A stretch of 64,000 bases of DNA from a virus. The notes beneath the pieces are model-generated. The model ran no database searches. It was not told the origin of the DNA and worked only from the letters and a program-made list of their open reading frames with translations. The stretch lies in IMG/VR virus record IMGVR_UViG_3300037247_001602, positions 30,489-94,488 of that record; one strand, 5' to 3'. Positions 7 to 26,153 of the stretch are shown here, piece after piece; the first letter of the stretch is position 1, and the number at the start of each line of letters is the position of its first letter. The position numbers and the translations under genes are program-made.

Positions 7-393
7 TTGCAACATGATGATATGGCCGTGCAGATTCTCGATGCGCTCTTCGAGAAGCGTGCCCGCATGGAGCCCGCAAAATTCGCTCAGTCCTTGGAAA
101 CATTCGATCAGATGTACGGCCTAAGCGATTACTGGGACTCCACGATCATTGATCCCTACCAGAGCACGTTCGGCGGAATCAAGGTAGAGAAGCCCATCTA
201 CGTGGCCGGCAGAGCCGTCTATCGCGATAAGATCGCTGCTCTGGCCACCGACGAGAAAGTTCTAAAGCACCACTTCAATTCCGATTTTGTCGAGCAATTC
301 CGTAAGGCCCCGATCGAGGTATTCCAGAAGTTGGCCACGCCCGATCAGGAACTCATGCTCGTTCTGATCGACGAGAAGGAAAATCGTAGGTGA
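7..393 (+). CDS. 5'-truncated hypothetical virion-associated protein
   Basis: ORF runs from the window edge in the structural block; contains FEKRA, DKIA and QKLA motifs; stop overlaps the next start. Confidence 0.6.
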   Translation: MQHDDMAVQILDALFEKRARMEPAKFAQSLETFDQMYGLSDYWDSTIIDPYQSTFGGIKVEKPIYVAGRAVYRDKIAALATDEKVLKHHFNSDFVEQFRKAPIEVFQKLATPDQELMLVLIDEKENRR

Positions 394-671
394 CCGTGAT
401 CGAGAAGATCGCGTATGTGGGCGGCAAGGGCCCCAAATTCAAGGTCTTGAGGGATGGCCGCGTAAATCTCGATCCGGAAGAACGCGCCTTGGTGATGAAG
501 CGCAAGGCTGTCTGGCACATGAACGGTGGAGGTCCAAGCTCAGCGGTATTCAAGTCGAATGTGAAGGGGAAAACCTGGTACACGACTCACACGCACAGAG
601 CCTATAATGTGACCCCCACGCTGAAGGGAACGATCAACCGCTTCCATAAATTCATAAAGGGCACATCATGA
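390..671 (+). CDS. small basic protein with N-terminal IEKIA tag
   Basis: Begins MTVIEKIA; AAGGA upstream; translationally coupled to both neighbours. Confidence 0.75.
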   Translation: MTVIEKIAYVGGKGPKFKVLRDGRVNLDPEERALVMKRKAVWHMNGGGPSSAVFKSNVKGKTWYTTHTHRAYNVTPTLKGTINRFHKFIKGTS

Positions 672-874
672 AGATGATCGAGAAGATCGCTCGCGAGATG
701 CCGAGCTTCACTAAGCAAAAGCGACCTGCCAAAGTGAAAGAGATCTACCGTGCGCTCAAGCGGGAGCACCCCGAGATGCCAGCAGCCATGAAAGCTCGCA
801 TCGCCGGTCGCCAGGGCAAAGTCGGAAAACAAGAAGTTGGACCTCCGTACACGGCTCCACTAAGTGGAAAATGA
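668..874 (+). CDS. small basic protein with N-terminal IEKIA tag
   Basis: Begins MKMIEKIA; ATGA overlap with the previous gene; K/R-rich. Confidence 0.75.
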   Translation: MKMIEKIAREMPSFTKQKRPAKVKEIYRALKREHPEMPAAMKARIAGRQGKVGKQEVGPPYTAPLSGK

Positions 875-880
875 CGACCA

Positions 881-1597
881 ATGAGAGCCGAACTGGTGAT
901 AGAGCCGCTAGACACCACTGGACGGATTAAATCTGCCGACGAATGTTTCATCGAAGCATTCCATAGTCCCGGTGCGAACGGATCTGTCAGAAAACTAGCC
1001 GCAGTCCAAAAGCCAGATTCGTGGGAAGCGGGTAGGCCTCCGGGATGGTACTCCCAGACTCTCATCAAGAAATACGATCGGCTCTGGTTCGAATGGGAGC
1101 CAGAAACTCTCTGGTCCACGATCGAGAAAGATTTCAATACCGCAGTTTCCGAACTGACGCGGAACAAGATCAACGCCGCGAAGCTCATTTACCTGACGGA
1201 TGCATTCTGGAAGGAGTGGCATGTCTTCGAGAAAGTAGTTCAGGCCTTCACTGATCACATTCCCGACTTCTTCTCCGTAGAGCCTCCCAGCCCGGCAGAG
1301 GTCGCATGGGGCGTTTACGAAGTCAACCGGATGCGACCCAATATCACATTCTCCGAGGAAGTCGCAAGTTACGTTCAGGGGATCTGCAAGGAGGCAGGAC
1401 TCGTTCTCTTTCCCGAAGAACTGGAATTCGCACAGCCGAAGCCGTTGGGAACGCTTGCGGCTGACGTGAGGGCCGGATGGCAGATGATCAAAGAGTTGAA
1501 AGAGATTGAAATCGTAGAGAATGAGATCGGCGTGAATCTTGTAAGATTACAGGCCATCCGTGCTTACGTGGAGGAGCAGTTCAGTGAGCATGAATGA
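881..1597 (+). CDS. hypothetical virion or morphogenesis protein
   Basis: 238-aa ORF in the structural operon; IKSA and RKLA motifs near the N-terminus. Confidence 0.7.
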   Translation: MRAELVIEPLDTTGRIKSADECFIEAFHSPGANGSVRKLAAVQKPDSWEAGRPPGWYSQTLIKKYDRLWFEWEPETLWSTIEKDFNTAVSELTRNKINAAKLIYLTDAFWKEWHVFEKVVQAFTDHIPDFFSVEPPSPAEVAWGVYEVNRMRPNITFSEEVASYVQGICKEAGLVLFPEELEFAQPKPLGTLAADVRAGWQMIKELKEIEIVENEIGVNLVRLQAIRAYVEEQFSEHE

Positions 1598-1871
1598 CCA
1601 GATAATCTCTGGATTCATCGACGAGATCGAGAAAGTCGCCCGCCTCACGGGAAAAGATATTGCTCGTGGAGCTGCTCTCGGAGCCTTGACTGGCATAACA
1701 GTAGGAACAGTCAAGGGTTATACAGAGAAGAAACTTGAAAAGAAACTTAAGAAAAAGTACGGGAAAAAGAGTGAGGTTCCTTGGGCAGCAGCCAGAGGCG
1801 TCACAAGCGCAGGAGCGGGTGCTCTTTATGCCTTGGCGCCACTGATTGCACTTGCTAAGATGAAGAAATAG
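1590..1871 (+). CDS. small membrane-like protein with GFIDEIEKVA leader and glycine-zipper helices
   Basis: ATG at 1590 follows GGAGGAG; two Gly/Ala hydrophobic segments. Confidence 0.7.
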   Translation: MNDQIISGFIDEIEKVARLTGKDIARGAALGALTGITVGTVKGYTEKKLEKKLKKKYGKKSEVPWAAARGVTSAGAGALYALAPLIALAKMKK

Positions 1872-1873: not shown

Positions 1874-3856
1874 ATGGCTGATCAAAGCCAATTCAATCTC
1901 GTCCGGCGTCGGGGTAATTTCAATTACCCTAGCCCGTACTTCGATATTTCCTCTACGTATGTTCCGCCGTCAGTCAAGGAACTGTTCAAGTGGTGCCGCT
2001 TCTTCTTTTACTCCCATTCGATCATTAGTCCGATTATCTACAAGATTTCGGAATATCCAATCACAGGACTGATCTATCAGAGCGTCGAATCTGATCAACC
2101 CCTACCTGAGCAGGCTAAGAGCAAATGGAAGACGCTGCTTGAGAGCACTCTTAAACTGAAGTCCAGACAGATCGAGATTCTTCTCGATTATAATACCTAC
2201 GGCAACGCATTCCTTTCGATCTTGTATCCGTTCAAACGCTATCTTGTCTGCGAGAAATGCGATACCAGATCAGCCATTGAGAAGACCTCCTATAAGTGGA
2301 AAGACCTGAAGTTCTACGGAGAATGTCAGAAGTGCAACCAACAAGTCGAATTCCAGATCAACGACGTAGAAGTCAAGAATAGATCGCAATGCCGTCTTAT
2401 TCGCTGGAATCCGTTCAATATAAGTATCGATCACTGTGGACCCACGGATGAACGAGTCTATGTATACAAAATCCCGTCCAAGGACAAGAAGTCCATTATT
2501 GCCGGGAAGAAATTTTGGATTGAACGCGCTCCATATGTCTTCATTGAAGCTGCGCGAAAGAACCAGGATATCGAACTAGATCCGAACAATCTATTCCACT
2601 TCAAGCGTCCTTCGATCGCCGATAATGATATGGGATGGGGAATGCCGATCGTTCTCCCTGTCCTGAAGGACGCCTATTGGCTTCAGATTCTACGTAAGGC
2701 GAACGAGGCGATCAGCCTGGAGCATATTGTCCCGTGGAGAATTATCTTTCCTGCGGCCAACGCAGATGCATCGCCTTATGTCAATCTGAACCTGAATTCT
2801 TGGAAGAATCAGATCGAGAAGGAGGTCAGGCGTTGGCGCCAGGACCCGAACCATATCTCGGTCATGCCGCTCCCGATCGGGAATATCAGCTTCGGTGGGG
2901 ATGCCAAGCTGCTTCTGGTTTGGCAGGAAGAGAAACTTATGCAAGGCCAAATCGCAGGTGGCCTTGGAGTTCCTCTCGAATTGGTATTCGGCGGACTCAC
3001 GTGGTCTGGATCATCGGTATCACTACGAGTGCTAGAGAATCATTTTCTCACAGATAGGGAATTGCTCGATGAATTCGTCAACGAATTCCTGATCCCGCGC
3101 CTGACGCGATATTTCCGGCTGCCGAAACTCAAAGTCAAGATGATTGAGTTCAAGATGGCCGATGATGTTCAGCAGAAACAGTTGGCCATGCAACTCAATC
3201 AGGCAGGGAAACTATCAGATACAACTCTTCTTGGCCAGTCGGGGTTCGACTTCGATGATGAAGTAAAACTCAGAAGGGCCGAGCAAATTCAGCTTATTGA
3301 GATGCAGAGAAAAGCCCTGATGCAACAGGCCGAACTTCAAGGAATGACACAGGTTGTCGGAGCCAAATACCAAGCTGTTGCTCAACTCGAAATGTCACGA
3401 GCGCAAAATGTGGCGAATCAGGAGGCCATGGAGGGGCAGTATGAATTCCAGAAAGGCGTCCAACAGGAACAGCAACAGCAGGCCACGCAGCAGATAGCCA
3501 TCGATCAGGCGCAAGGGCAGCAGGGCCAGGGGAAAGGCCAACAGTCGGCAGTTCCCATGGCACAAGGTGGTGTCGTCTCAGGACAAAAGCCAGGACAAAA
3601 GCCAGGGCAGAAATCAGATCAGAAGCCGGGCCAGATGCCGACGGTAAATACCATGGATATGGTTCGCTCCTGGGCACAGGGATTGATGTCACTACCAGAG
3701 GAACAGCGTGAGATGGCGCTCGGTTCCTATGAGCAAGAACACCCTGAGACAGTCGCGCTGATCCGTCAATTCATGAAGGAGATGTTGAAGCAGACGGCAG
3801 ACATGAGACCAAACCCAGAAGTAAAACCTCCAAGAAGAAAGAACACAACAGTCTAG
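1874..3856 (+). CDS. portal protein, with Zn-ribbon insertion and Q-rich C-terminus
   Basis: Portal-like patterns: YGNAF, LFHFKRP...WGMPIVLPVLK, IAGGLGVPLELVFGG; CEKC...CQKC insertion; head-gene context. Confidence 0.7.
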   Translation: MADQSQFNLVRRRGNFNYPSPYFDISSTYVPPSVKELFKWCRFFFYSHSIISPIIYKISEYPITGLIYQSVESDQPLPEQAKSKWKTLLESTLKLKSRQIEILLDYNTYGNAFLSILYPFKRYLVCEKCDTRSAIEKTSYKWKDLKFYGECQKCNQQVEFQINDVEVKNRSQCRLIRWNPFNISIDHCGPTDERVYVYKIPSKDKKSIIAGKKFWIERAPYVFIEAARKNQDIELDPNNLFHFKRPSIADNDMGWGMPIVLPVLKDAYWLQILRKANEAISLEHIVPWRIIFPAANADASPYVNLNLNSWKNQIEKEVRRWRQDPNHISVMPLPIGNISFGGDAKLLLVWQEEKLMQGQIAGGLGVPLELVFGGLTWSGSSVSLRVLENHFLTDRELLDEFVNEFLIPRLTRYFRLPKLKVKMIEFKMADDVQQKQLAMQLNQAGKLSDTTLLGQSGFDFDDEVKLRRAEQIQLIEMQRKALMQQAELQGMTQVVGAKYQAVAQLEMSRAQNVANQEAMEGQYEFQKGVQQEQQQQATQQIAIDQAQGQQGQGKGQQSAVPMAQGGVVSGQKPGQKPGQKSDQKPGQMPTVNTMDMVRSWAQGLMSLPEEQREMALGSYEQEHPETVALIRQFMKEMLKQTADMRPNPEVKPPRRKNTTV

Positions 3857-6166: not shown

Positions 6167-6972
6167 TGAGTATTACGGGATCTACAGATCAAGGCGATGG
6201 GCGCAGAGACGTAACGGTCGATCATGACCCGCGTTCGACGGCTACTGACGTTCCCGCTGGGTCAGTCATTCTCTACGTCGGATCGCCCAGCGGCGATTTG
6301 TGGACGGGGTGTCAGTTCGTCAAACTGGACGACGGCGCGACGACCAATGTTCATTATGTTGGCGGGCGCCCAACACTGTCCGGTAGTTGGGACCTCACTG
6401 CGGGTACACCCGCCAATAAAAACATCCCTGACGCCAAAAAAATCAAGCGTATCACCCGTGCTCGGTTTTGGATCAGCCAGAGCGGATTCGACGTAGGAAC
6501 GAACACCGCTACTCGTATTATACTCCAATTTTTTAATACTGATGCTTTTACTCATGCCGAACTTGATACGGTTGGCGAAGTGGCACTTATTAAACAATAT
6601 GCTGAGTTCCAGTTTGCAAGCCAGGATGTTTTCGTGAACATCAACAATGGTGTTGGTGCCTTCGACATTGATTCTACGGCCTCGTTTGTAGTTGAAGACT
6701 TAGTGCGAATCCACGATGGTACGAATTGGGAGTTTCAGCGGATCGATGATGTGACGGACGCCGATACGTTGAGCATTTATAACACTATCCTGAGGGCTGA
6801 CGGAGATCCAGTGTGGTCTGCTGATGACGATGTTACGCGCGTATTGGAGATCCGAGACCTGGGATGTAATGATGAAGACTACTCTGACGAGATCCATCTG
6901 CGCTTACTCCCTCGCACCGGCGACAACAATTGTCGCCTGCATTATTGGATCGAGTATGAAGGAGCTGCCTAA
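6166..6972 (+). CDS. putative virion structural protein
   Basis: 268-aa acidic, beta-rich ORF; TAATG coupling to the upstream gene. Confidence 0.6.
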   Translation: MSITGSTDQGDGRRDVTVDHDPRSTATDVPAGSVILYVGSPSGDLWTGCQFVKLDDGATTNVHYVGGRPTLSGSWDLTAGTPANKNIPDAKKIKRITRARFWISQSGFDVGTNTATRIILQFFNTDAFTHAELDTVGEVALIKQYAEFQFASQDVFVNINNGVGAFDIDSTASFVVEDLVRIHDGTNWEFQRIDDVTDADTLSIYNTILRADGDPVWSADDDVTRVLEIRDLGCNDEDYSDEIHLRLLPRTGDNNCRLHYWIEYEGAA

Positions 6973-6979
6973 TTTTACC

Positions 6980-7007
6980 TTGCAAATACTGTGCGGCTGT
7001 GTAGTAT
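6980..7007 (+). promoter_or_regulatory. sigma70-like promoter
   Basis: TTGCAA-N16-TAGTAT (TG before the -10) in the intergenic gap. Confidence 0.5.
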
Positions 7008-7016
7008 GAGGCTGAT

Positions 7017-7268: not shown

Positions 7269-7270
7269 TC

Positions 7271-8275: not shown

Positions 8276-8883
8276 GCTGTCACGGGTCTCTCGAAGAGAC
8301 GCCACAGTCTTCCCGGAATATAATGCGGTGGGACCTCTCTTTCTTCCTGGGTTGGTTCCCAGAATATCACATCATCTACCTGGCCGTAGGTGTGAGTTAC
8401 ATAGGATCGGTCGCCATTTTTGAAGTCGCAATAAGAGACGAGCGCCTCGGGATGATTGGGATTGCCCAAAACCTGTTTAGATGGCTCCGATCTCAATTTG
8501 AATAGATGGGTTTTCGAAACCCAGCATCTCATGAGAAGTGCGTAGGCTCTGGAATCCATCTCACGGACCATCATTTCCATGGCGGCTTGGAGAAGATCAG
8601 GATCGAAGTCGATCATGGCCTGGACGTTTATCATCCGGCACATATCAAGGCCGTCTTTGACGTACCAGATGTAGAAATATGGGGCGACGTACCTGTTTTT
8701 GTTCATCTCGTCCTGGCCGAGTTCCAGGGTAATCTTATTGAATGCCCTGGGATCAATGCAATTATGGAAAAGGCTCTTGTCGGCGGGAACATCTTTTGTT
8801 TCAACGTGAATATGTTGCGCGACGGGGAATCTTTTGATAAGATTGCTTACTCTCGTGTAAGGAACACCTTGTGAAAAATCCAT
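8248..8883 (-). CDS. hypothetical early protein
   Basis: 211 aa; GGAGG RBS; GGTATAAG motif at 8928-8935 upstream. Confidence 0.7.
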   Translation of the reverse strand: MDFSQGVPYTRVSNLIKRFPVAQHIHVETKDVPADKSLFHNCIDPRAFNKITLELGQDEMNKNRYVAPYFYIWYVKDGLDMCRMINVQAMIDFDPDLLQAAMEMMVREMDSRAYALLMRCWVSKTHLFKLRSEPSKQVLGNPNHPEALVSYCDFKNGDRSYVTHTYGQVDDVIFWEPTQEEREVPPHYIPGRLWRLFERPVTAEEEEGEEE

Positions 8884-10028
8884 GGAATCCTCCCGTAGTA
8901 GACCTAGATAAGATCGCCGATGAGAATCTTATACCAAAAGGCGATCCCTGGTTGCACGTTCTTTTTGCTGCCGATGATCTCCACAGCCTGCTGAAACTTG
9001 GTATAGCCGATATGGATCGGCTCGTCTACGGAATATATCAGAATCGGGATCATGCGGAGATTCCGTGGCATGAGCTTGTTGGGCCAATCGAGGCGCAGCT
9101 CTACCATTGCGGATATCAGGCAGTCTGCGGCGGGAGGCAGTATGCTGAATCGTTCCGGACGGATCATACGAAAGTCGCACAGCTCCTCGATTGGAATTAT
9201 CGAAAAGACATAGAAGAAATGATTACGGGCATGGGATACCCAGCCTCGAAGAAGACTATGGATATTGTTCACGAGGCTCTTGGAGGCGCTCAGGCTCCTC
9301 CTATCCACGAACTGAATCAGCTCATGGCATTCGAGCAGGCGAAGGCAATCGCACGCACGGTGATGATGAATATCTATGTGAAATCCGCCCTGCGCAAGTG
9401 GCAGGAAGACGGAATCACAAGAGTCAAACGCATGGAGATGCGGGACAAGAAAACATGCCCGATTTGCAAAGCGCTAAACGGAAAAGAGTACGAGCTTGCT
9501 GATCTCATCAATTTGGTATATCCGTTGACGAACGATAGCCATCCTTCCTGCCGAGGGACCTTCATTCCGCTGATCTCTCTAGAGACCTACGATCCGAAAG
9601 TTCGTGAGATTCCGCTGGCCGTGGATTTCTCCGTTAGTGGAAACACGGCCAAGAATGTTCCCCTCGAAGTCAAGCCATGGCTCTACAGCTTCTTGAGAAA
9701 GCTCAAAGGACCGATCAGCGTGGAGTTCGATCCTACGATTACTGAGTCTTACACGTGGGGTCCTTTCGAGATCAGGATCAACCCCGATGCCCTGGAAGAC
9801 GAAGACGTGCGCGAGATCATTCTGGAATCCATTGCACATCAGATCTGGCCCACTTTCGAAGATAAATTCATCGCGGAATATATTCCGCTGATCCAATCCG
9901 GACTGGCGCATCCATCGAAGAGCTTTTCTAACAACAAAGAGTTATTCATCTATAACTACATCGCCCATAGGATGGGACAGGACCCAGATCCCTTCTCCAA
10001 TGCCTGGTGGCTCCAAAACGTAAAATAA
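8871..10028 (+). CDS. MuF/SPP1 gp7-like head morphogenesis protein with C-terminal extension
   Basis: IART...DKKTCPICKALNG...HPSCRG MuF signature; LDKIA near the N-terminus. Confidence 0.8.
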   Translation: MKNPWNPPVVDLDKIADENLIPKGDPWLHVLFAADDLHSLLKLGIADMDRLVYGIYQNRDHAEIPWHELVGPIEAQLYHCGYQAVCGGRQYAESFRTDHTKVAQLLDWNYRKDIEEMITGMGYPASKKTMDIVHEALGGAQAPPIHELNQLMAFEQAKAIARTVMMNIYVKSALRKWQEDGITRVKRMEMRDKKTCPICKALNGKEYELADLINLVYPLTNDSHPSCRGTFIPLISLETYDPKVREIPLAVDFSVSGNTAKNVPLEVKPWLYSFLRKLKGPISVEFDPTITESYTWGPFEIRINPDALEDEDVREIILESIAHQIWPTFEDKFIAEYIPLIQSGLAHPSKSFSNNKELFIYNYIAHRMGQDPDPFSNAWWLQNVK

Positions 10029-17200: not shown

Positions 17201-17306
17201 TGCACCCCTGGCCGCATATGCATATGGTCCACTGATCGGAAGAGAGCGCGAAAAAGCTGCTGAAGATACTGCCCAACTAGAGGAGATTGGCAGTGTCTCA
17301 GAATAG
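11286..17306 (+). CDS. rpoBC: single-chain fused beta-beta' DNA-directed RNA polymerase
   Basis: Beta motifs: HTPESDRIG, IPFLQNDQGNRAMM, GYNFEDG, GDKLAGRHGNKG, YMLKLDH. Beta' motifs: HIELAEP, NRAPSLH, NADFDGD (15405-15425), RSPLTC..CQRCYG, QSMAEPATQMVMRSFHTGG. Confidence 0.97.
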   Translation: MLDFEAQARNSEKSLVAAIKAIFPYAGKKQTLIAERIWIDKEARTFGDFGSQKEVKGKDKTWAMPIYGKFRLVDNATNEVIDRIDKMTLVNLPLATARGSYIVRGSEYQVANQFRLKPGVYTRIQQNGELESQVNLAKGMNFRILLAPNSGIFFMKLGETKIQLYHLLTAFGVSRSAIESIWGPELTAKNSKKGSQDGEVNKAYKIIFRKEPENLAEAISSLETYFAGNVIDRSTTKLTLGKGFKNVNADLLLRTSARILSVSRGEDKADDRDSLEFKQLLSVDDFLRERIDKNANKIKFKMRFNIDRKDNIREIMGLSTFNYPIESFFTGGAEAFGGNTGLSSTPEQTNPLHMLSETSKVILSGSGGITNPYQVTVEARAVHPSTMGFVDPVHTPESDRIGTTLQLPLGIKKKGQKILAGFYSVKTGKVVDLAPDQAADSVVSFRDQYDEKNGKLKPKTRNVKASVKGKISIVPANEVEYVIPSPQAMFGIATNMIPFLQNDQGNRAMMAGKMMTQALPLVNREAPLVRVVAGKGVVFESVAGQGFSHRAPVSGTITSATEKEVVIKGADGKRHTVSLYDNFPLNSKTAFIDAEVVVKKGDKVKKGQLLADTTFTKDGDLSLGINATVAYMPFKGYNFEDGIVISESFSKKFTSSHLYKLTTSIDKQTLMNLAKFKAYYPEALDLASASRLDSDGVIKKGEIVKFGDTVMSVLRKEEKGPEDLILGRLHRAFIKPYKNKSVLWEEEDEGEVVDVIKTARKIEVHIRTAEPAKIGDKLAGRHGNKGTITFIGGDAEMPTTADGEVIEVLLNPHSIPGRINPGQILETVAGKIADKQGRPFDVRNFTGRNYLEDVERAAKKAGVQDKEDLVDPVTNQRLPGVLVGKQYMLKLDHPTRKKFSARAQGSYTADLQPSRGKHEGGQSMDTLTLYSMLSHGAKANLREMATYKSGRNDEVWRALQLGQSLPAPAVPFATEKFISMVKGLGVDVKKDGNTLALSPMTDKKILEYSSGSIKNSKIVRGKDLRPEKGGLFDPIITGGVAGTNWNHIELAEPMPNPIFENAIKAILGITGTIYEDIISGRRYVTPDGQIVPESTDETETGGIGIKILLSKIDMDKKIKELLVQAKKKKGAALDKINKVIRYLTALQKNGLKPTDYIIKNIPVMPARLRPVYPLPDGSLNVTEVNHLYKDLIDLSDQNRDFIALDMPDQDIAPLRENVYKGMRALVGLQDHLGGRGYKGLIEQIRGNTNKEGFFQNRIMSRRQEFSGRSTIVPEPALGLDDVAIPEEMAWKIYRPFIVRELVRQGYKDSALEAREELDKKTPLAMRALQIAMEDRPVMLNRAPSLHKFSIMSFMPQLTTGKAIKINPLVVKGYNADFDGDTMAVHVPITEEARNESFKMLPSRNLYNPRSGELMNYPTQEAITGLYLFTQSPKGRATLNAILPAAKYHIKGPLTAKEMISVLDRISKEMPNQFTKVVNALKDIGNRASYEMGFSVGLEDLKMDYSSRDRIFNEAENAIKKVKGDKTQAIIDAYTSAAKKLDVALLGDKRLRANSFMIMARSGGKGNIGQIRQILAGPVLVKDVHDRTIPVPIKKSYSEGLDLADYWASMAGARKGMIDRSLQTSIPGAFAKELLNVTVNHVISIADCKTTRGVEIPVDDSDILDRYLARGIKDVARRNSIVTAYVIKKARKNNVKTLLVRSPLTCEAEQGVCQRCYGLSDNGRPPEIGTNVGVEAGQSMAEPATQMVMRSFHTGGAAGMAGGIVSGFTRISDLLKMPKILKNKATLSRESGKITKIDTSPIGGWNVWVDDEEHHVPAGRRVLVKQGQTVSMGDRLSDGPIKPQELLELRNMRETQDYIVNSLKDEYLNQGIQMRRRVLETVVRPLTNSARVTHPGGHEAYVPGDHAPLTILDAYNRKAKPEDKIEYEPIIRGINTAPLASQDWITRLNFQRLKETLIEGPAQGWKSDIATIGAPLAAYAYGPLIGREREKAAEDTAQLEEIGSVSE

Positions 17307-19314
17307 TTTGGACAGAATGCTTCTCATGCTCTCTGGCGATACACTTCAAGAGAAAATCGCGCAGTCAATCGTTGCGCCCACGCTTCAAGATACCAAAATC
17401 GAAACGGAGAAGATCGAACCAGGTCCAGGATTGAAAGAGGGCGTCCAGCTTACCCCGGCACAGATTGATTTCTCTAGATTCATCGCAGACCGTCGTGGGA
17501 TCGGAATCGCTGCTTGGAAACCTGGCGCCGGAAAGACACTTGGTACAATCGCTGCATTCCTGAATCTGAGGGCTCGGGGAGAGGCCAAGAAGGCAATCGT
17601 ACTTGTTCCCGCTTCATTGCGAGTGAACTTTGCTGAAGGAGGCGTCACTAAATTCACAGATGCCCAATATGGAATCATCGGGAACAAACAAGAAGCCGCA
17701 TCTTTCGCCGACATGGATGTTGAGCGCATGGGAGAGAAGGATTTTTATATCATCTCCCATGATATGTTTAGGGCTAACTCCGATTATTATTTGCAGAAAA
17801 CCGGCGCCGATACGGTCATCATGGATGAAATGCACCGTGTCAAAGATCCGCAATCCGTATTAAATGACGTAATCGAAAAGGTTGGCCCTACTGTCCGGAA
17901 TTTCATCGGCGCTACAGCAACGCCAGCAATGAATAAGCCCTTCGAGGCGATCGAGCTGAAAAATGTAATCAGTTCTCCCGAGGAACGATTCACGGAGAAG
18001 CAATTTACGCAAGCATTCATCGAGCGCGCTCCAAGAGATTTCTGGGAAAGAGTCCGAAGCTTGTTCGGAGGTAAACGCACCGGAGAGATCAAAGGATTCA
18101 AACGAAGGAAAGAGTTAGCCGAGCTGTTAGGTCGAACATTCCATTTTGCCGACCCTAAAGTTAAAGGGATGCCGAAGAAAGACGTTCAAATCATCGAAGT
18201 TCCGATGACCCCTACTCAGGAACAGAATTATCACGCGATCTTGAAGAAGAAACTGAACAGGCGCGAGCAACAGATTCTACGAGAGGGACAACTTTATCCT
18301 GATCGTGAAATGATCAAGATCCTCAACAAGGCCATGGCGACGCGCCAGCTATCAAACAACGCCAGGTGGGTTGAGGGCGATTTGCCAGAAAGAGCGGGAG
18401 CCGAAACGCCCAAAATACTGAGAATGACGAGAGACATTGAAGATCATATTAAGAGGCGACCTGATGCACAGATCATCATCGCATCGAACTTTGTTGGGTC
18501 TGGCGCGAAACTTATGGAGGCCATGCTCAAGCAGAGGGGTATATCATTCGGGAAATACTACGGGAAAGGCCAGGAGGGAATAACAGGGGAAACGAGAGAA
18601 CAGGCGATCAAGAACTATAACGCCGGCAAAGTCAAGGTTATGCTCATGACCGGCGCTGGCGCCGAGGGGCTGGATCTTCCGAATACGACGATGCACCTGA
18701 CGATGGACCCCCACTATAATCCCGAGAGAATCACTCAGCAAGAGGCTAGAGGAATCCGTCGTGGCGGGCAGGCTCATATTCCTCCCGAGAAGCGCAAAGT
18801 GATCGTGAAGCGCTATATATCAGTTCCCAGACAGGGATTCTCGATCGAGCGATCTATCTACCAGATCGCCGCAAAGAAGAAGGCCTTAGTCGATCAGCTA
18901 AAGCAGATCGGATTGGAAGCCCAGCAGGAGAGAGCGAGAAGAGATCCTGGACGCAGAAGGGCATTGGCCTTATTCTCTAGGCGCCAGCAGAAGCCTCAAT
19001 TACCCCAGGAGCCTGAGCGTCCCAAGCAGCCCATGATGAAAGCCGCTGGGAACGGGGGATATCTGAATGCTCGTGGTAATTTCGATGAGCACACAGTCCG
19101 ATTAATCGGTGGATCTCAGGCCGCATTCAATGTGGATTCAGGGGATACAATCGATCGAAAGTTCCATGCGCAAACTCGACTTGGGAAGTGGAGCAAGCGG
19201 AGAAAATCAACCTTGACGGGCAAGGAGCAGGCCCGGATGCGATTTACCGGGAAGACGGAAGGTAACCTAGGCCCGAACGAAAATGCCCAGCCGATAACAC
19301 GAGTAGGCTACTGA
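17287..19314 (+). CDS. SNF2/SF2 helicase-ATPase
   Basis: Walker A PGAGKT, DEMH, ATATP, GAEGLDL and QQEARGIR motifs; QEKIA near the N-terminus (true start may be GTG 17293). Confidence 0.9.
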   Translation: MAVSQNSLDRMLLMLSGDTLQEKIAQSIVAPTLQDTKIETEKIEPGPGLKEGVQLTPAQIDFSRFIADRRGIGIAAWKPGAGKTLGTIAAFLNLRARGEAKKAIVLVPASLRVNFAEGGVTKFTDAQYGIIGNKQEAASFADMDVERMGEKDFYIISHDMFRANSDYYLQKTGADTVIMDEMHRVKDPQSVLNDVIEKVGPTVRNFIGATATPAMNKPFEAIELKNVISSPEERFTEKQFTQAFIERAPRDFWERVRSLFGGKRTGEIKGFKRRKELAELLGRTFHFADPKVKGMPKKDVQIIEVPMTPTQEQNYHAILKKKLNRREQQILREGQLYPDREMIKILNKAMATRQLSNNARWVEGDLPERAGAETPKILRMTRDIEDHIKRRPDAQIIIASNFVGSGAKLMEAMLKQRGISFGKYYGKGQEGITGETREQAIKNYNAGKVKVMLMTGAGAEGLDLPNTTMHLTMDPHYNPERITQQEARGIRRGGQAHIPPEKRKVIVKRYISVPRQGFSIERSIYQIAAKKKALVDQLKQIGLEAQQERARRDPGRRRALALFSRRQQKPQLPQEPERPKQPMMKAAGNGGYLNARGNFDEHTVRLIGGSQAAFNVDSGDTIDRKFHAQTRLGKWSKRRKSTLTGKEQARMRFTGKTEGNLGPNENAQPITRVGY

Positions 19315-20054
19315 TGCTGATTGAGAAGATAGCTGTTTTTGGGGTCCGCGCTCAGGCACAAGTGCTGAAAGCCTTCAAGCGCAGGGCGCTACCTAAACAA
19401 TGGTATCGTAGGGTGGGCAAACCTTTAGTAGGCGTTGAGGGCCCTATAGGGGCTGCGTCGGAATTAGAAATGAAAAGAGCAACGAGAGCTGCCAACATGT
19501 TTGCTCCCATTCTTGGAGTGCCTCGCCTGAAATATGTAACTGCTCCGCACATTGGAAAAGCCTGGACTGCTGGAAAAGGAGATACTGTAACCCAACTAAC
19601 CAATTTCGTGTCTAAACATCGTCCTTCACGCGGAAAAACCTTAAGATCAATTGTTAAGACCATGAAACCTGAAGATCGGAAAGCGGTCAATGCGATCATT
19701 AAGGCTCATGAACTAGATGAACTTAATATACCTCTGAAACTACGCGAGAAAGGATATTTGGGCGCACTTGAACATTCTGGATTTGAAGTCATGTTTAGAG
19801 AAAGCAATAGAGTCAGGGCGCTTCCAAAAAGAATGAAGGCGGCTAAAACATTCATGAAAGAACTTCATCGGGGAACTACGGATGAACTTGCACTGAAGCC
19901 GGTTCCCGGATTCAGATATGGAGAGACAAAAATAAACAGATCGGCCAGGCGAAGGGCAATGGCTATTATTGTTAGGCATGATGAGGCCATACTAGAAGAT
20001 TATTCAAAATGGAGCGCATATATAAAGAAGCTTACGGAGATAAAAAAGAGTTAG
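19314..20054 (+). CDS. basic IEKIA-tagged protein with HELDE motif
   Basis: Begins MLIEKIA; AHELDE...LEH resembles a variant metal-binding motif. Confidence 0.7.
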   Translation: MLIEKIAVFGVRAQAQVLKAFKRRALPKQWYRRVGKPLVGVEGPIGAASELEMKRATRAANMFAPILGVPRLKYVTAPHIGKAWTAGKGDTVTQLTNFVSKHRPSRGKTLRSIVKTMKPEDRKAVNAIIKAHELDELNIPLKLREKGYLGALEHSGFEVMFRESNRVRALPKRMKAAKTFMKELHRGTTDELALKPVPGFRYGETKINRSARRRAMAIIVRHDEAILEDYSKWSAYIKKLTEIKKS

Positions 20055-20096: not shown

Positions 20097-21518
20097 ATGA
20101 ACTTTATCGAGAAAATAGCAAGGCGCAAACGCAAGAAGAAGGAATTTGCGCCTGGACTTCCCAGAAGAGAGCAGACGACGAATCCTCCCGTCACAGAAAA
20201 GCCGAAAATATGGGCTTCTGTTATTCAGCGACACGACGCCAGGCGAGCCGGAACTCATTTTGATTTCCGTCTTGGCGATCTAGAGACTGGGATAGGCCAC
20301 TCCTGGGCGATGCGTAAGCTTCCTGGACCTGGCGAGAAAGTCCTGGCTATCCAACAGCCCGATCATACGATCCCCTATTTCAAATTCACAGGCGAGATCC
20401 CTGTCGGTTATGGCGCCGGCGAAGTAGGGCGCCACAGCCTGCTCGACGCAGAGGTATTGGAATCCGATAAGAATCGTGTCATTTTCAACCGCTATGACGG
20501 GCGCGATACGCACGAATACGTCCTTCGCCGAATGGACGACAAGCATTGGCTCCTCATCAATCGCACTCCAACAGCCAAGTCAGAACCAATGCCTGAATCC
20601 AAGCCCAAATACAAAGAGATCAAGCCCGGCCAGGTTGATCCGAAGGCCCCAGGCAGATGGGATGCCAAGATCGACGGTGCGTCTCTGAACTATGTCATCC
20701 ATGATGGCAAGCCTATTCGGGCTTTCTCGTATCGCCGCAGTAGGCGAGGGCCGGCCCTGATCCAGCATACGCAACGAATTCCTACTCTACAGGGCGAGAA
20801 GGCACCCAAAGGGTACAAGAGGACGATCCTGAGAGGTGAAGTCTGGGCCACGAATCCCAAGACGAAGAAGGCGATTGAAGCACGGGAACTGGGAGCCTTA
20901 TTGAATTCTCATGTGCTGAGATCACGCAGGCTTCAGGAATCGAAAGGAAAACTTAAGAATATTATCTTCGACATTGTCATGCACAAAGGCAAGAATGTCG
21001 AAGGATTGCCTACGGAAGAAAAGCGCCGCCTGATCGACGAGGTGATCAAAGATTCCAGATTCAAGGGAATATTCGAGAAGCCGTCTTCTGCCACGACACC
21101 TTCTGCGAAAATGAAACTCTTCGAGAAGATCCGCAAGAAACAACACAAACAAACGAAGGAAGGAGTCATCATCCATTCCCCTGAAGGCGTGATGACGAAA
21201 GTGAAATTCAAACCCGAATGGGACGTTGAGATCTCCGGCATCTTCACGAAGCCTAAATCAAAGGCCAAGGGGCAAGCGGGAGGATTCACCTATCGCAAGC
21301 TAGATGGCAAGAGGATAAGCAGGCTGTCCCGTGTAGGAACAGGATTCAGTCGCAAATTACGCGAAGCGATGTATGAGAATCCGGAAGACTTTGTCGGCGT
21401 AGTAGCCAAAGTCACAGGGATGGAGCAGTATCCTTCTGGCGCGATCCGCACCCCTTCTTTCGTTGGATGGCATTTAGATAAGAACGAGCCGGCCATGATT
21501 CCGGAGATCAAAAAGTGA
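20097..21518 (+). CDS. LigD-like 3'-phosphoesterase fused to ATP-dependent DNA ligase
   Basis: PE domain: QRHDARRAGTHFDFRL, SWA, LAIQQPDH, YGAG. Ligase: KIDG, RGEV, FDIV, EGVII, KVK and OB-fold RVGTGFS. Confidence 0.9.
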   Translation: MNFIEKIARRKRKKKEFAPGLPRREQTTNPPVTEKPKIWASVIQRHDARRAGTHFDFRLGDLETGIGHSWAMRKLPGPGEKVLAIQQPDHTIPYFKFTGEIPVGYGAGEVGRHSLLDAEVLESDKNRVIFNRYDGRDTHEYVLRRMDDKHWLLINRTPTAKSEPMPESKPKYKEIKPGQVDPKAPGRWDAKIDGASLNYVIHDGKPIRAFSYRRSRRGPALIQHTQRIPTLQGEKAPKGYKRTILRGEVWATNPKTKKAIEARELGALLNSHVLRSRRLQESKGKLKNIIFDIVMHKGKNVEGLPTEEKRRLIDEVIKDSRFKGIFEKPSSATTPSAKMKLFEKIRKKQHKQTKEGVIIHSPEGVMTKVKFKPEWDVEISGIFTKPKSKAKGQAGGFTYRKLDGKRISRLSRVGTGFSRKLREAMYENPEDFVGVVAKVTGMEQYPSGAIRTPSFVGWHLDKNEPAMIPEIKK

Positions 21519-21688
21519 CCATCATCGAAAAGATCGCTCAAATCGGGGGTCTCCGAGCCATGGGGCACGGAGCCAGGATGAAGGCAGTGAAAGCCTTCCT
21601 CAGAAGTATAGGCAAGCAGCCGAAGAAGAGGACACTGATTGAAAGGTTGGCCAGAATTCAGAGGCAACTTCCCCAGCCTGCAGGCTAA
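21515..21688 (+). CDS. 57-aa basic IEKIA-tagged protein (missing from ORF track)
   Basis: GTG start overlaps the ligase stop and follows GGAG; reads MTIIEKIAQIGGLRAM...PAG*. Confidence 0.6.
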   Translation: MTIIEKIAQIGGLRAMGHGARMKAVKAFLRSIGKQPKKRTLIERLARIQRQLPQPAG

Positions 21689-21786: not shown

Positions 21787-22902
21787 ATGGCAACGCCGCT
21801 ACATACAGCGCAGAGATTCGGATCGGATCGCCCGACTGAAGATCCGTACAATCAGTCGGCTACGCCGTTCCTGGAAGGGATTATCCGTGATGTGGATTCC
21901 GAGAAGTGGACATGTGAGGTTAAGACACTAGGCCTGGATCAGTCCCTCCAAGATGTCCGGATCATGTCGCCATATTTTAATTTTACGAATGGCCATGGAA
22001 TGTTCCAAATTCCAGAAATCGGCTCAATGTGCGTGGTTAGTCGCACGCAGTCTGATTGGTTCGTTGTCGGTTTCATACCGCCTTCCGATGTGGATGATAC
22101 TGAAGGTACGGAATCAGATGAGGCCACGACAGGCAGCCAGAACCTATCAGAGCCCTTCCTGGGCCAGGTAGCGGCCATTCAGAGCCGGCTACTAAAGCAA
22201 GAGCAAGGGGGAAACGGAATACCCAAACGGCACTCATTCAGATCTAACCGCGAAGGAGATATGATCCCTGGAGACGGATGCCTGAAAAGCCGGGCCGGAA
22301 ATAAATTCAAATGGTTTACAAATGGGAATCTTCTGGCCGAAGCATCGAAACTCTGCCAGAGAATATGGTCCCGATTGCAGAATCAGATCATAGATATTGC
22401 CGCCCGTTACAGTCTGCTCACTCCTGGAGTCCAGAAAGAGATCACCGTCTCTGATGAAACGCGGGAAGTCCTTGAGACGATTAAAGTTAGAAGAAAGACA
22501 GATGACGATACGCCGCAGATACAAATCAAGAGAGGATTCATCAATGGCCAAGAAGTCTATGAATTTATCGTTCAGGACAATAGCGGCGTAAAACACAGAA
22601 TCACCATTGGGACCGATGGTGAGCGCCTAGTCACAATTGGAGATCCCTCTTTCCCGGCAGTTAAGATTGAATCGAAACCATCAGGTGAGTATAATCTCAC
22701 CGCGACTACAGCGGTCAAAGTAGACGCTCCAAGCGTCATCGTAGGCGTGACAGGAGCCGAGGACTTTCTCGTGAAACTGAGTTCCTTGCTCGTCAAGTAC
22801 AACGCTCATACGCATAATGGGAATTTGGGGGCTCCGACTGGGCCAGTTCTTTCTGGTATCCTTGATAGTTCAGATGGAACGACAAAGCTGAGAGGCGGAT
22901 AG
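21787..22902 (+). CDS. baseplate central spike (gp5/gpV-like)
   Basis: N-terminal OB fold (GIIRDVD..IPEIGSMCVV..WFVVGF), a beta-helical region, and an apex HTH (YNAHTH) metal motif. Confidence 0.75.
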   Translation: MATPLHTAQRFGSDRPTEDPYNQSATPFLEGIIRDVDSEKWTCEVKTLGLDQSLQDVRIMSPYFNFTNGHGMFQIPEIGSMCVVSRTQSDWFVVGFIPPSDVDDTEGTESDEATTGSQNLSEPFLGQVAAIQSRLLKQEQGGNGIPKRHSFRSNREGDMIPGDGCLKSRAGNKFKWFTNGNLLAEASKLCQRIWSRLQNQIIDIAARYSLLTPGVQKEITVSDETREVLETIKVRRKTDDDTPQIQIKRGFINGQEVYEFIVQDNSGVKHRITIGTDGERLVTIGDPSFPAVKIESKPSGEYNLTATTAVKVDAPSVIVGVTGAEDFLVKLSSLLVKYNAHTHNGNLGAPTGPVLSGILDSSDGTTKLRGG

Positions 22903-22911: not shown

Positions 22912-24822
22912 ATGGATCTTTTCATCGAGACTCCGACTTTCGAGAAGACTGCATCGATCAAACTCTCGGAAGATATAAACGAGTGGCCTATACAGATCAC
23001 TCAGCATCTTCACGAAGAACATCCCTATCTCGTGGATGAATCATCGGAGGTCATCATCAAGAGATCCGATGCTCTTCGCGGCTACGGATATGGATTCGTG
23101 AAGATCGGAGAAAACGTGCGCGTGCCAGTTATCGTGAATCAATACGAGATGAGTCCCCTGGATGTTTGGCTTGATAAGAAGGGACTGGCCCATGTCCTCG
23201 ATGAAGATGCTGTCAGAGGAGCAACTCAGTCAACGACACTCGGCAAGGCTATCAAGCAACAGACCGATGGCTATGTCGATTCGCTGATCTACAGCAGAAC
23301 CTATCCGCCCTATGACGGCAAGTACGTATATGCTGCCGCCAACCACGAAACAGAAATAGCTGTCCACCCACGCCCATATGTTTCAGTTCTGTCCTCGATT
23401 CCGATGACGCCAGAGGAAAGGAAGGTTAACTTCGAGAAGCTGGCCCAATCCGTCGTGGCTGGATTTCATGCGAATGGAACGGACGTGACAGTTCTTAAAC
23501 CATGGCTCTCAGACGGATTCGAGAAGGTCGCCGCTGAACGGGACAAGCGTGCGAGCCCTATTGGAGCCTATTGCTCTGAGGATGCACCGATTCCCGATGC
23601 GATCATCAAGGAAGACATGAATACGGGCGATCCTCAGGTCGCCGACTCGTATGGTGACTACTTATGCGAAGGCAAGTCCGGAGAAAGATACATCGGTCAC
23701 GTTTTTCCCCATGTATACGATTTTGATCTCAAGCCCGTCGATCTTGCGATCTTCAAAGGCCGGTGGCAGCCGGATGTGAAACCAGGAGCAAGGTATCCAG
23801 TCGGACCAAAGATATGCTCCTCTGTCCAGGCCAGAATCGCCGGAATTAAGCTTCCAAAGAGCAGGAAACTACATGACGATCACGCCCGCTCGAATGAGCG
23901 CGGATTCTTCGTCAAAGAGAAGGGAGAGGCCGCAGTCGCCCTCATCCCCGTCACTATCCTGTCCGTGGCTCGGTCAAGAGAGCATCACGAGACGAAAAGA
24001 GAAAACGAGACTTATGACCGCCGAATCAAGATTGAAACAGATTATGAGATCACGAAATTCTATTGCAAGACCGATCTCGGCGAGGCGGTCACGATTGTGA
24101 AGTCGCCTAATACGACCGATGTGAAGCGGTCTGGATCGACAGTCTTCATCCCTGGATCGATGATCTTTTGCCGGCTAGAGACGCCGATCACGCTGAAAGA
24201 AGACCCGGAGATGATCAAGAAGGCTGCCCTGGCTGACTATGGCGTCAATGATATGAGGGTGAACCATATCGATGGCGTTTTCTCGTTCCACGGAACGAAT
24301 GTGGATGGCTATGAACTCCAAGCCGGCGTGCCAGAGAAAGAGGCGAGAGACTTTCTGGAACAAACGTGGACGAAGGAGGCTTCGGAGAAGATCATCAAGC
24401 GTGCCCAGCAGGGCAAGCCAGGAATCGCAACGACTATTCATGTCGCAATCGCGCCTCCTAAATTTGAAAAGACAGCTTCGGATCACATTGTCGAAGTGAA
24501 TGAAGAGGGGGTTGTCCTCACAGATCCGGAAGCGTTTGCGTTGAGGCTCCAGTATCTCACGCGGGATTTCGATAAGATTGCGGCAACGCTCCAAGATTCA
24601 GGACTCGTGGATTCCGTCTTGAGTCTGAAATTCATCAACAAAGAGAACATTGACAAATATGCTGAATTCGCTCCTCAGTTCGAAGAAGCCGTGAACCACT
24701 TGGCTGATTTGCTGATCGCATCTCGCGTCGGCCTTCAGATTCAGGAAGAAGCCGTCAAGACGGCCATGAAGAACATGGCCATCGTTGTGCGTGAGCTAAA
24801 GACGCTGAAAGGGATCAAATGA
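22912..24822 (+). CDS. large virion or head-core protein with multiple KxA sites
   Basis: 636 aa; FEKTA twice, FEKLA, FEKVA, DKRA, KKAA, FDKIA. Confidence 0.65.
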   Translation: MDLFIETPTFEKTASIKLSEDINEWPIQITQHLHEEHPYLVDESSEVIIKRSDALRGYGYGFVKIGENVRVPVIVNQYEMSPLDVWLDKKGLAHVLDEDAVRGATQSTTLGKAIKQQTDGYVDSLIYSRTYPPYDGKYVYAAANHETEIAVHPRPYVSVLSSIPMTPEERKVNFEKLAQSVVAGFHANGTDVTVLKPWLSDGFEKVAAERDKRASPIGAYCSEDAPIPDAIIKEDMNTGDPQVADSYGDYLCEGKSGERYIGHVFPHVYDFDLKPVDLAIFKGRWQPDVKPGARYPVGPKICSSVQARIAGIKLPKSRKLHDDHARSNERGFFVKEKGEAAVALIPVTILSVARSREHHETKRENETYDRRIKIETDYEITKFYCKTDLGEAVTIVKSPNTTDVKRSGSTVFIPGSMIFCRLETPITLKEDPEMIKKAALADYGVNDMRVNHIDGVFSFHGTNVDGYELQAGVPEKEARDFLEQTWTKEASEKIIKRAQQGKPGIATTIHVAIAPPKFEKTASDHIVEVNEEGVVLTDPEAFALRLQYLTRDFDKIAATLQDSGLVDSVLSLKFINKENIDKYAEFAPQFEEAVNHLADLLIASRVGLQIQEEAVKTAMKNMAIVVRELKTLKGIK

Positions 24823-25472
24823 CCACAGGAACCTTAGCCACACCCGTTAATTCACTTACAGAATGTCAGACCGCTGGAGCAAATAGCTCTATACCCCCAA
24901 TGCCAACGTTTGTCGGTCATGATTATACAGTGGTGGAGAGCACAACGACGGCAGGTACATCAGAGCAGATTGTTAGCCACCCAGCCGCCTTTCCTTCCGT
25001 CGTAAATACACCTATCGTGATGCCGAGTCCTATATACTCCGCTCCTTCGTATGGCGGACAGTTTAATGCTGGACAATCCAAGGGAGACCTGATTCTAGAG
25101 CGCTTGGCCGAATTTGATTCAGGGAAGATTCATGAGTTCATCCGAAGGAACCGCAAGACAATCACTAGCCTGGAAGAGATGATTGTCAATCTTCTTAAAG
25201 ATGCCGATCTCATGGCCTATGAGATCTTGAAGCCTCTGATGGTGGCCAAGGATGAGGCCTATAATATGATCAAATACGCACTGCACACTTTAGAGCAGCG
25301 CTGCGCGCCCGTTAATGATCTTCAGCCGGTGGTAGCGCAGGAATTCCGGGTTGAATTGTCAAATGAGGACTGTGCCCGGATAACGGAAACTATAGCTGCT
25401 GGAAGTAAAGCAGTAAGCGTGAGTTGCGCTAATTCAACATATATTCACCCTCGCATAGTAGCTGGTAGTTGA
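24819..25472 (+). CDS. hypothetical protein
   Basis: ATGA coupling; 217 aa. Confidence 0.6.
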   Translation: MTTGTLATPVNSLTECQTAGANSSIPPMPTFVGHDYTVVESTTTAGTSEQIVSHPAAFPSVVNTPIVMPSPIYSAPSYGGQFNAGQSKGDLILERLAEFDSGKIHEFIRRNRKTITSLEEMIVNLLKDADLMAYEILKPLMVAKDEAYNMIKYALHTLEQRCAPVNDLQPVVAQEFRVELSNEDCARITETIAAGSKAVSVSCANSTYIHPRIVAGS

Positions 25473-25491
25473 CAAGAAGGAGGACGCAGGT

Positions 25492-25683
25492 ATGGCGACG
25501 ATTATAGGCACTCAAACATCCGAGACCCCCAAAGATAAGACTGTAACCCTGAAAGGAGAGGCGGTCCTGAATCCTGCGGACGCAGCATTACAGATCGATA
25601 TTCCTATCGATCATCAGGCTCCAACCGGAAGGCGACTGAAAGTATCGTGGACAGTCACGATTCTTGAAGAGGATAATACTTAG
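25492..25683 (+). CDS. hypothetical protein
   Basis: AAGGAGG RBS; 63 aa. Confidence 0.65.
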   Translation: MATIIGTQTSETPKDKTVTLKGEAVLNPADAALQIDIPIDHQAPTGRRLKVSWTVTILEEDNT

Positions 25684-26153
25684 TGAGGGTTATTGAGAAA
25701 ATCGCTGATGCACCGAAGGCAAAGAAGAATCTCCAAGGCTCTCTTCCGAAGACCTGGGGAGTTCTCTATGCACATCCAAATCCAGACGGGTCCCGCAAGA
25801 AGTGCGACAATTGCATGATGTTTATTTCTGGCGAGAAGCAATGCGAAATCCATGATATAAACATTGTCGTTACGAAAGAGGATGTTTGTGGCTACCATGT
25901 TTACGGCAAGACGCATCCCAAGCGGATGCACAAGCCTGACAATGTTCACCTTCAGGCCGTGGACCCGAAGCATAGCGGACTGGCGAAAGTCCCTGGCGGG
26001 ACTTCGTGCGGCACATGTGAATACTTTAAGAACTCGAAGAACGGGAAGGGGACGTGCATCGTTGTCCAGGAAGGGGTTGGAGAGGATGAATCGACGGGCA
26101 AGCTAGCCACTGTTGAAGCACTTGGATGTTGCGCAAGATGGAAATCCAAATGA
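25683..26153 (+). CDS. IEKIA-tagged protein with two HiPIP-like 4-Cys domains
   Basis: CDNCMMF..C..VCGYH and CGTCEYF..C..GCCARW. Confidence 0.65.
   Translation: MRVIEKIADAPKAKKNLQGSLPKTWGVLYAHPNPDGSRKKCDNCMMFISGEKQCEIHDINIVVTKEDVCGYHVYGKTHPKRMHKPDNVHLQAVDPKHSGLAKVPGGTSCGTCEYFKNSKNGKGTCIVVQEGVGEDESTGKLATVEALGCCARWKSK

Follow-up and report, generated by a model that had tools for sequence, protein, structure and literature searches.

The window analysed here comprises 64,000 nucleotides of viral DNA, the final 64 kb of IMG/VR record IMGVR_UViG_3300037247_001602 (94,488 bases; CheckV completeness estimate, 52%), and its + strand late block encodes a portal protein, a MuF-like minor head protein, and a single-chain RNA polymerase (Table 1). 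Distributed through the same block are six open reading frames (ORFs) that specify the exact pentapeptide IEKIA within residues 3–8 of their products. The analyses presented here suggest that this short N-terminal tag may act as an address for entry into the assembling phage head and as a cutting site of a prohead protease.

Six tagged proteins in a late gene block

The six ORFs had been listed in an earlier note made from the DNA letters of this stretch; all six are verified, all lie on the + strand, and a degenerate DNA pattern for IEKIA finds only these six sites in the six frames of the entire record, with none for a reversed control. From amino acid composition, 0.04 copies would be expected in the proteome, versus the six observed, and no other 5-mer is shared by as many distinct ORFs of the genome as IEKIA (six); the sole 5-mer that outnumbers it in copies lies within three tandem paralogues. 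A single internal LEKIA, also noticed earlier on the minus strand, is located at 52722.

The codings of IEKIA vary at five nucleotide positions, every one of which is a third codon position, confirming that the differences are synonymous, and mean pairwise nucleotide identity is 83% in the 15-nucleotide tag versus 37% in the 30 nucleotides upstream and 25% downstream. Because only third codon positions vary and the flanks are dissimilar, selection acts on the peptide, and it is at this level that IEKIA is conserved. It could be proposed instead that the 15 nucleotides act in translation initiation or in the binding of a regulator on the mRNA of coupled genes, given that five of the six tagged starts overlap the preceding stop codon (GTGA, ATGA, TGATG, and TAGTG). 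However, all variation among the tags is synonymous, and the peptide motif also occurs internally and C-terminally in fused proteins and is written with other codons in other lineages. A nucleic-acid element is thus close to refuted and, in our estimate, extremely improbable.

Looser copies lie near the starts of the products of four further genes (those beginning at 1590, 8871, 17287, and 22912), as the earlier note had reported, although the EKAA near the C terminus of the RNA polymerase that it listed with them is a poor match. As read from these sequences, IEKIA is the variant used here of a broader motif, hydrophobic-x-K-hydrophobic-A. When late genes are compared with the remainder, this motif is found in the first 30 residues of 9 of 26 genes of the + strand late block versus 2 of 106 others (Fisher p = 5e-6). 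In five of the six tags, residue 6 is K and residue 8 is A. Every one of the six tagged proteins is basic (isoelectric point [pI], 8.9–12.0), as expected for proteins packed with DNA.

Table 1. Genes of the + strand late block, with positions in the window, and the copies of the motif in their products (aa, amino acids)
Feature	Position	Strand	Motif and remarks
C-terminal third of 363-aa protein	1..393	+	Start 698 bases before window; motif copies FTKVA, VKTAA, FQKLA
Tagged basic 93-aa protein	390..671	+	MTVIEKIA; IEKIA codons 399-413; pI 10.6
Tagged basic 68-aa protein	668..874	+	MKMIEKIA; IEKIA codons 677-691; pI 10.5
93-aa protein	1590..1871	+	GFIDEIEKVA at residues 8-17; glycine-rich hydrophobic segments
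Portal protein	1874..3856	+	32% identity, E = 1e-74, to annotated portal gp204 of Salmonella phage Arash
MuF-like minor head protein	8871..10028	+	LDKIA at residues 11-15
Single-chain beta-beta' RNA polymerase, 2006 aa	11286..17306	+	Untagged; Pfam Rpb2 and Rpb1 domains
SNF2 helicase	17287..19314	+	LQEKIA about 20 residues from first start codon; Pfam SNF2-rel_dom and Helicase_C
Tagged 246-aa protein	19314..20054	+	MLIEKIA; IEKIA codons 19320-19334; family with H-E-x-x-E
Tagged LigD-type 3'-phosphoesterase and ATP-dependent DNA ligase	20097..21518	+	MNFIEKIA; IEKIA codons 20106-20120
Tagged very basic 57-aa protein	21515..21688	+	MTIIEKIA; IEKIA codons 21524-21538; pI 12.0
636-aa protein, five motif copies	22912..24822	+	FEKTA 10, FEKLA 174, FEKVA 203, FEKTA 518, FDKIA 553
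Tagged Cys-rich 156-aa protein	25683..26153	+	MRVIEKIA; IEKIA codons 25692-25706

The assignments of the larger genes rest on profile matches and on comparison with relatives, by which we mean loci and genomes found via the ligase and the 246-aa protein. The portal protein shares 35–37% identity with those of relatives, its PHROG portal match being weak, and the polymerase shares 34–50%; six ORFs and ~7.4 kb separate the gene for the latter from the upstream portal gene of the same + strand block. The MuF-like protein matches Pfam Phage_Mu_F at 30.7 bits (cut-off, 29.6) and the PHROG minor head protein at E = 5e-11, and the ligase matches Pfam LigD_N at 40.0 bits (cut-off, 31.1) and DNA_ligase_A_M at 40.9 bits (cut-off, 26.2). 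For the three smallest tagged ORFs (93, 68, and 57 aa), homologues were not detected and their placement is by context alone; the 93-aa protein encoded at 390 has no Pfam or PHROG match, and the ESM Atlas gave no lead.

Conservation of the tag in orthologues

Eight full-length orthologues of the ligase (63–83% identity) start [LIF]EK[IM]A, and over this ligase set the motif density of the first 35 residues is 17 times that of the remainder. More distant orthologues either begin directly at EFAPG[IL]P or have a longer N-terminal helix that ends L-x-K-L-A just before it, and in several ligases an extra motif directly follows the ligase core, where it forms a tail or links the core to additional domains. 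As the alignments stand, a motif that abuts the point where untagged ligases begin is what would be expected of a removable extension.

The 156-aa family and the SNF2 orthologues show similar behaviour. Close orthologues of the 156-aa protein start MKNIEKIA, MTKLIEKLA, MNLIEKLA, or MNLITKIA; distant members are untagged, and one distant member has a Pfam HiPIP domain. Logan contigs of 117–186 kb encode orthologues of this protein. SNF2 orthologues start MMDLKKFA (L007), MNLRKFA (L008), MDKLAQF (G003), and MKYFTKLA (G005). In the 246-aa family, 44 of 90 homologues have the strict motif within the N-terminal 35 residues and many of the rest have a variant, at least 90% of aligned members retain the K of the tag and at least 90% of a 30-sequence alignment the A, and in the longer fused proteins of this homologue set the motif recurs internally at module borders. 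The earlier note had called the tagged proteins unrelated; the tag is portable, but the motif of the 246-aa family is ancestral and forms a near-invariant part of the N terminus.

Over all orthologue sets and lineages, the E of IEKIA is often replaced by S, T, A, or other residues, the K is near-invariant, and the A is largely kept, in agreement with the K-x-A core that had been proposed. Because the E is so often replaced while the K is near-invariant, a T4-like cut after Glu is at odds with these data. These comparisons indicate that the tag is a portable, protein-level signal with a K-x-A core.

In G005, a 53-kb fragment of another phage that looks unrelated, 18 genes within 10 kb start MKYFxKxA, among them those for the SNF2 helicase and a 246-aa homologue, and the register of this tag (K6, A8) equals that of five of the six IEKIA tags. 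A tag that is uniform within a genome yet divergent between genomes would be expected of a signal read by one co-evolving partner. The MKYFxKxA genes lie at 6136–16340 of locus L020 (G005), and most others of the 18 are without a known family.

The motif on scaffold-like, capsid, and head protease proteins of relatives

This phage and its relatives have in common the portal, polymerase, helicase, and terminase as well as the 363-aa and 636-aa proteins, which are the only multicopy motif proteins in the window. In the complete relative G003 (182.7 kb), the gene order is a 330-aa ORF with nine motif copies, portal, polymerase, a 671-aa ORF with six copies, and a tagged helicase, followed by terminase, a protease-like gene, and the major capsid gene; the portal gene directly adjoins the polymerase gene in G003, L011, and L015 and nearly so in the cultured Salmonella phage Arash. 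The 363-aa protein, whose C terminus matches the 330-aa ORF of G003, is a homologue of the scaffold-like proteins that adjoin the portal in relatives and that contain seven to nine motif copies each. Homologues of the 636-aa protein come after the polymerase in G003 (the 671-aa ORF), L007, and L033. The 636-aa protein was also considered as a homologue of the head protease described below, and this was ruled out (BLASTP E = 0.055; hhalign probability, 0.4%).

The major capsid protein of L035 and L036 (PHROG major head protein, E = 2e-8) has FFDKVA or FFEKVA at residues 11–17, and overall the capsid motif falls within residues 11–25, as LEKVA in G005 and L037 and as the K-x-A variant LVKEA in Arash. 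Moreover, the form F-x-D-E-hydrophobic-x-K-hydrophobic-A, seen in the window in the protein encoded at 1590, also heads many proteins of relatives. In L035 and L036, the gene immediately downstream of the major capsid gene encodes a 246-aa homologue, and the product of a gene upstream, a 573-aa protein, matches the PHROG head maturation protease (E = 8e-7).

More than 1,700 entries of the protein database, from public metagenomes, belong to the head protease family, for which Pfam has no model. Its members are rich in the motif, with a mean of 6.1 copies per 564 aa (120 members) that lie at about residues 27, 240, 260–320, and 460–520, and the catalytic domain (residues 60–220) holds just 2 of the ~730 motif sites. 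One site, located immediately after the catalytic domain (GADKTAKVMAKLA), is near-invariant. In an AlphaFold model of residues 1–266 the core is confident, and the motif-bearing flanks are flexible because their predicted local distance difference test (pLDDT) values are below 50. The best structural match of this model is T4 gp21 (Z 7.7; root mean square deviation, 3.6 A over 131 residues), followed by the varicella-zoster protease (Z 4.9), and the top three Foldseek rows are gp21. Conserved features of the family include an invariant His109/His110 and Ser166, a Cys-rich insertion, and a long C-terminal region with several motif sites; the His109/His110–Ser166 spacing resembles that of the His–Ser pair of T4 gp21, about 55 residues apart. 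According to the model, the head protease of the relatives is of the T4-gp21-like assemblin fold.

These data bear on the main rival to a cleavage site, in which the motif is an uncut docking peptide comparable to the cargo-loading peptides of encapsulins: a short amphipathic helix that binds a common prohead partner, such as the scaffold, the capsid interior, or the portal, and stays on the protein. The hydrophobic spacing around the motif (−4, −3, 0, +3, +4) fits such a helix, the strict N-terminal K6/A8 register in two lineages suits a pocket that recognises a chain end, the multicopy proteins could serve as multivalent glue, and trimming just six to eight residues seems pointless. However, placement of the motif on both sides of the protease catalytic domain, with almost no sites inside it and in flexible segments, is the self-processing pattern of T4 gp21 and SPN3US gp245 (PMC10052503), and the motif of the ligase abuts the start point of its untagged orthologues. 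We therefore judge docking without cleavage to be unlikely, if the strongest of the alternatives. A complex prediction for the L036 protease domain with capsid residues 1–45 scored 0.00, which is no answer and speaks neither for nor against binding.

Some head protease genes are interrupted (~37.1–41.2 kb of G005 [L021, L012]; proteins P0223, P0269, and P0306). In one of them, a 1372-aa ORF, the similarity to the protease is split into three pieces, and some database members have Hint/intein and homing-endonuclease Pfam domains. From these sequences, inteins in the prohead protease seem likely.

The 246-aa protein as cargo or reader

Throughout the family of the tagged 246-aa protein, H-E-x-x-E, an H, and a G are invariant and a further E is near-invariant. 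The protein has no Pfam, PHROG, PDB sequence, or Foldseek match. Its model is all-helical and confident (pLDDT 84.6), and in a wide structural search in which all matches had Z of 3.6 or less, ~10 of the top 50 rows were zincin peptidases, including DPP III, ArdC, selecase, jannalysin, SprT, and BepA. From these motifs and the model, the protein is predicted to be possibly a zincin-like metallohydrolase that is injected.

These features raise the question of whether the 246-aa protein is itself the reader of the tag, that is, a zincin-like metalloprotease that cuts the motif, perhaps after injection, to release cargo or activate enzymes. The conserved residues and the zincin rows would suit such a role, as would the HExxH protein that stands beside the helicase in L007 and L008 and the fact that the family nearly always bears the motif itself. 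Against it, the structural matches are weak and Foldseek gave none, and carrying the tag suits cargo equally well. Furthermore, no member of the family was found in the complete genome of Arash, which has motif-rich head proteins and a gp21-like protease. Because Arash thus has the motif system and the protease without this family, the 246-aa protein is most likely tagged cargo, and there is little prospect that it is the reader.

The HExxH proteins of L007 (9274–10023) and L008 (7548–8234) are 249 and 228 aa long and have the canonical sequences HEAGH and HEIGH beside the SNF2 helicase. These two loci are the closest IMG/VR relatives, and the H-E-x-x-E protein of this phage occupies the place of their HExxH protein.

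Particle proteins of the cultured relative Arash

Salmonella phage Arash (180.8 kb) and Vibrio phages D69, D148, and D181 are matched by the L036 capsid protein and by three proteins of the window, its portal, polymerase, and helicase. In Arash, gp222 is the homologue of the head protease (41% identity), and motif copies number seven in gp220, four in gp222, three in gp223, and four in gp225. The published particle proteome of Arash gives polymerase beta gp206 the highest spectral count and includes beta' gp216, helicase gp217 (38 unique peptides), gp218, and gp220–225; both polymerase subunits rank with the most abundant proteins, and the helicase too is abundant (PMC10585845). By comparison with these particles, the data support a model in which this clade carries its polymerase and helicase inside its particles. 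The labels "structural protein" in the Arash record disagree with the table of the published study (PMC10585845).

It may be asked whether the tag is instead a handle for a role outside the particle, where it might bind another common partner, such as the polymerase, DNA, or a chaperone or protease of the host, and thereby coordinate a set of replication and repair proteins. The tagged helicase and ligase act on nucleic acids and their genes adjoin that of the polymerase, and the predicted location of the tagged proteins in particles is derived from relatives and not from the window. Such a handle leaves unexplained the motif at the N termini of capsid proteins, on the flanks of the protease, and in the scaffold-like proteins of relatives, as well as the placement of the tagged genes among those for the portal and head proteins, and we regard it as quite improbable.

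In this phage and most metagenomic relatives, the polymerase is one fused beta-beta' chain; that of Arash is split, with two genes ~6.8 kb apart. Arash particles also hold two sigma-like factors.

A proposed head address and cleavage site

Taken together, the sequence and comparative data favor, on balance, a model in which IEKIA is both a capsid address and a prohead-protease site, in a scheme like those of T4 and phiKZ with a different code. This is the most likely reading because relatives carry the motif on capsid, scaffold, head-protease, and cargo proteins. Specifically, the motif, usually as K6 and A8, would mark proteins for entry into the assembling head and would also be the site that a T4-gp21-like protease of the assemblin fold recognises and cuts. 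The tagged proteins would then reside inside the head and be delivered together with the DNA and the virion RNA polymerase, and the cargo set would comprise the SNF2 helicase, the end-healing ligase, the zincin-like 246-aa protein, the Cys-rich protein, and the three small, very basic proteins. Consistent with this model, the tagged genes share the + strand late block with those for the portal, the MuF-like head protein, and the polymerase, and the presence of the motif on the flanks of the protease domain, at the capsid N terminus, and in scaffold-like proteins parallels, by analogy, the pattern of T4 and SPN3US gp245.

Three parts of this model are inferred: cleavage at the motif by the protease, recruitment of cargo to the prohead by the tag, and the presence of the protease gene of this phage in the missing half of its genome. 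No gp21-like protease was found in the 94-kb record, which represents about half of the genome, and neither was a recognisable major capsid gene; a 317-aa ORF considered as a capsid protein was rejected for want of similarity to the capsid protein of relatives. The Pfam models Peptidase_S78, ClpP, and S49 had no match in G000, G003, or G005. The gp21-like protease is present in G003–G009 and Arash and was not found in the fragmentary G001, G002, G010, and G011. Because the protease and capsid genes are present in every complete or large relative examined, both would be expected in the missing half.

Several points weigh against this model. First, since the fragment itself has neither a protease nor a capsid gene, the link to a reader rests on relatives. 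Second, the helicase and polymerase of Arash are packaged untagged, and the polymerase of this phage is untagged too; entry into the particle therefore does not depend on the tag alone. The head-loading role put forward in the earlier note stands to the extent that relatives carry the motif on capsid, protease, and scaffold proteins and that the Arash polymerase and helicase are in particles, but not as the sole means of entry. Third, the Arash proteome lists 116 proteins, among them ribonucleotide reductase, and so is not clean (PMC10585845), and it was obtained with trypsin and without N-terminal analysis, a cut after Lys being invisible in tryptic data. Fourth, removal of six to eight residues is far shorter than that of known propeptides (10–254 residues). 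Finally, a family-specific role is conceivable for the motif of the 246-aa family, where it belongs to a more extended stretch of conserved N-terminal sequence.

A broader proposal is that a global clade of ~180-kb, polymerase-packaging phages, including Arash, D69, D148, and D181, uses one code, hydrophobic-x-K-hydrophobic-A with K6/A8 at the N termini of cargo, read and cut by a Lys-Ala-specific, gp21-like protease. If this held, the injected proteome of these phages could be read from sequence, and an eight-residue tag might load foreign proteins into the head. We advance this only tentatively and consider it rather doubtful.

If the address and cleavage model is correct, an eight-residue tag would predict which enzymes are injected with phage DNA; here the predicted set would be a helicase, an end-healing ligase, a zincin-like and an iron-sulfur-like protein, and DNA-binding peptides, together with the virion RNA polymerase. 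The model would also add a new specificity, Lys/Ala versus Glu, to the T4/herpesvirus-type capsid protease family and would provide a very short handle with which proteins might be loaded into capsids. The cultured relatives, Arash and the three Vibrio phages, make the idea directly testable.

Comparison with known systems

In T4, the internal proteins IPI–III and Alt carry a capsid targeting sequence and the prohead protease gp21 cuts at L/I-x-E. As in T4, a short N-terminal peptide is common to unrelated proteins thought to be internal to the head, one motif is found in capsid, scaffold, and protease (here in the proteins of relatives), and the protease of the relatives has a gp21 fold. In contrast to T4, the motif is hydrophobic-x-K-hydrophobic-A with no conserved Glu, the tag has only eight residues, the cargo would include a helicase and a ligase, and the protease of the relatives has the Cys-rich insertion and the long, multisite C-terminal region.

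A second parallel is found in the giant phages SPN3US, phiKZ, and 201phi2-1, whose heads contain a multisubunit RNA polymerase and many ejected proteins. SPN3US gp245 removes N-terminal propeptides from eight head proteins as well as its own C-terminal propeptide (PMC10052503). Thus, in these phages too, N-terminal propeptides are removed from a subset of head proteins and the protease (gp245 or gp175) cuts its own C-terminal propeptide. However, the giant phages cut after A/S/G-x-E, their propeptides are 20–254 residues long with no uniform tag, and their polymerase subunits are split and of another lineage.

Short portable signals are also known from encapsulins, in which cargo-loading peptides at protein termini send unrelated enzymes inside an HK97-fold shell. 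Unlike the motif described here, those peptides are usually C-terminal and uncut, no protease is involved, and the sequences are unrelated. The predicted cargo also recalls the polyvalent proteins of phages and conjugative elements, reportedly described by Iyer, Aravind and co-workers in 2017, in which MuF, SNF2, and metallopeptidase modules are said to be delivered with DNA. In this phage, unlike in polyvalent proteins, the modules are separate genes, each with its own tag, and fused forms in relatives carry the motif at module borders. The SNF2 protein of the window matches helicase profiles 986–1881 positions long and, weakly, a 2269-position profile labelled DNA methyltransferase. By analogy with these systems, we lean slightly toward regarding the present one as a variant of capsid targeting and proteolytic maturation of the T4/phiKZ type, with a different code, a very short tag, and unusual cargo enzymes.

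Other genes of the window and its relatives

Megablast of 25 kb against GenBank phages gave no match, nor did tblastn of the 246-aa and 636-aa proteins against the same phages or IMG/VR single-protein scans with the helicase and the 246-aa protein, and PDB sequence searches of the 317-, 268-, 766-, and 437-aa ORFs returned nothing useful. The portal gene is followed at 3866–6166 by one for a 766-aa protein, of which a 75-residue stretch resembles the tail fibre gp42 of Haloferax tailed virus 1 (E = 4e-6). Three tandem paralogues of ~437 aa are encoded at 44654–48704, directly after the large terminase, and the sole resemblance found for them, to the pore-forming toxin monalysin, is weak (E = 0.005).

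A stand-alone LigD-type phosphoesterase, without ligase, is encoded a few genes upstream of the portal in L011 (10007–10570), L015 (3163–3651), L013, and L014. Unlike in these loci, the LigD-type phosphoesterase of this phage is fused to the ligase and lies downstream of the polymerase. Finally, the 371-aa protein encoded at 21787–22902 is kept beside the polymerase, helicase, and 636-aa module in L007, L033, and L034.

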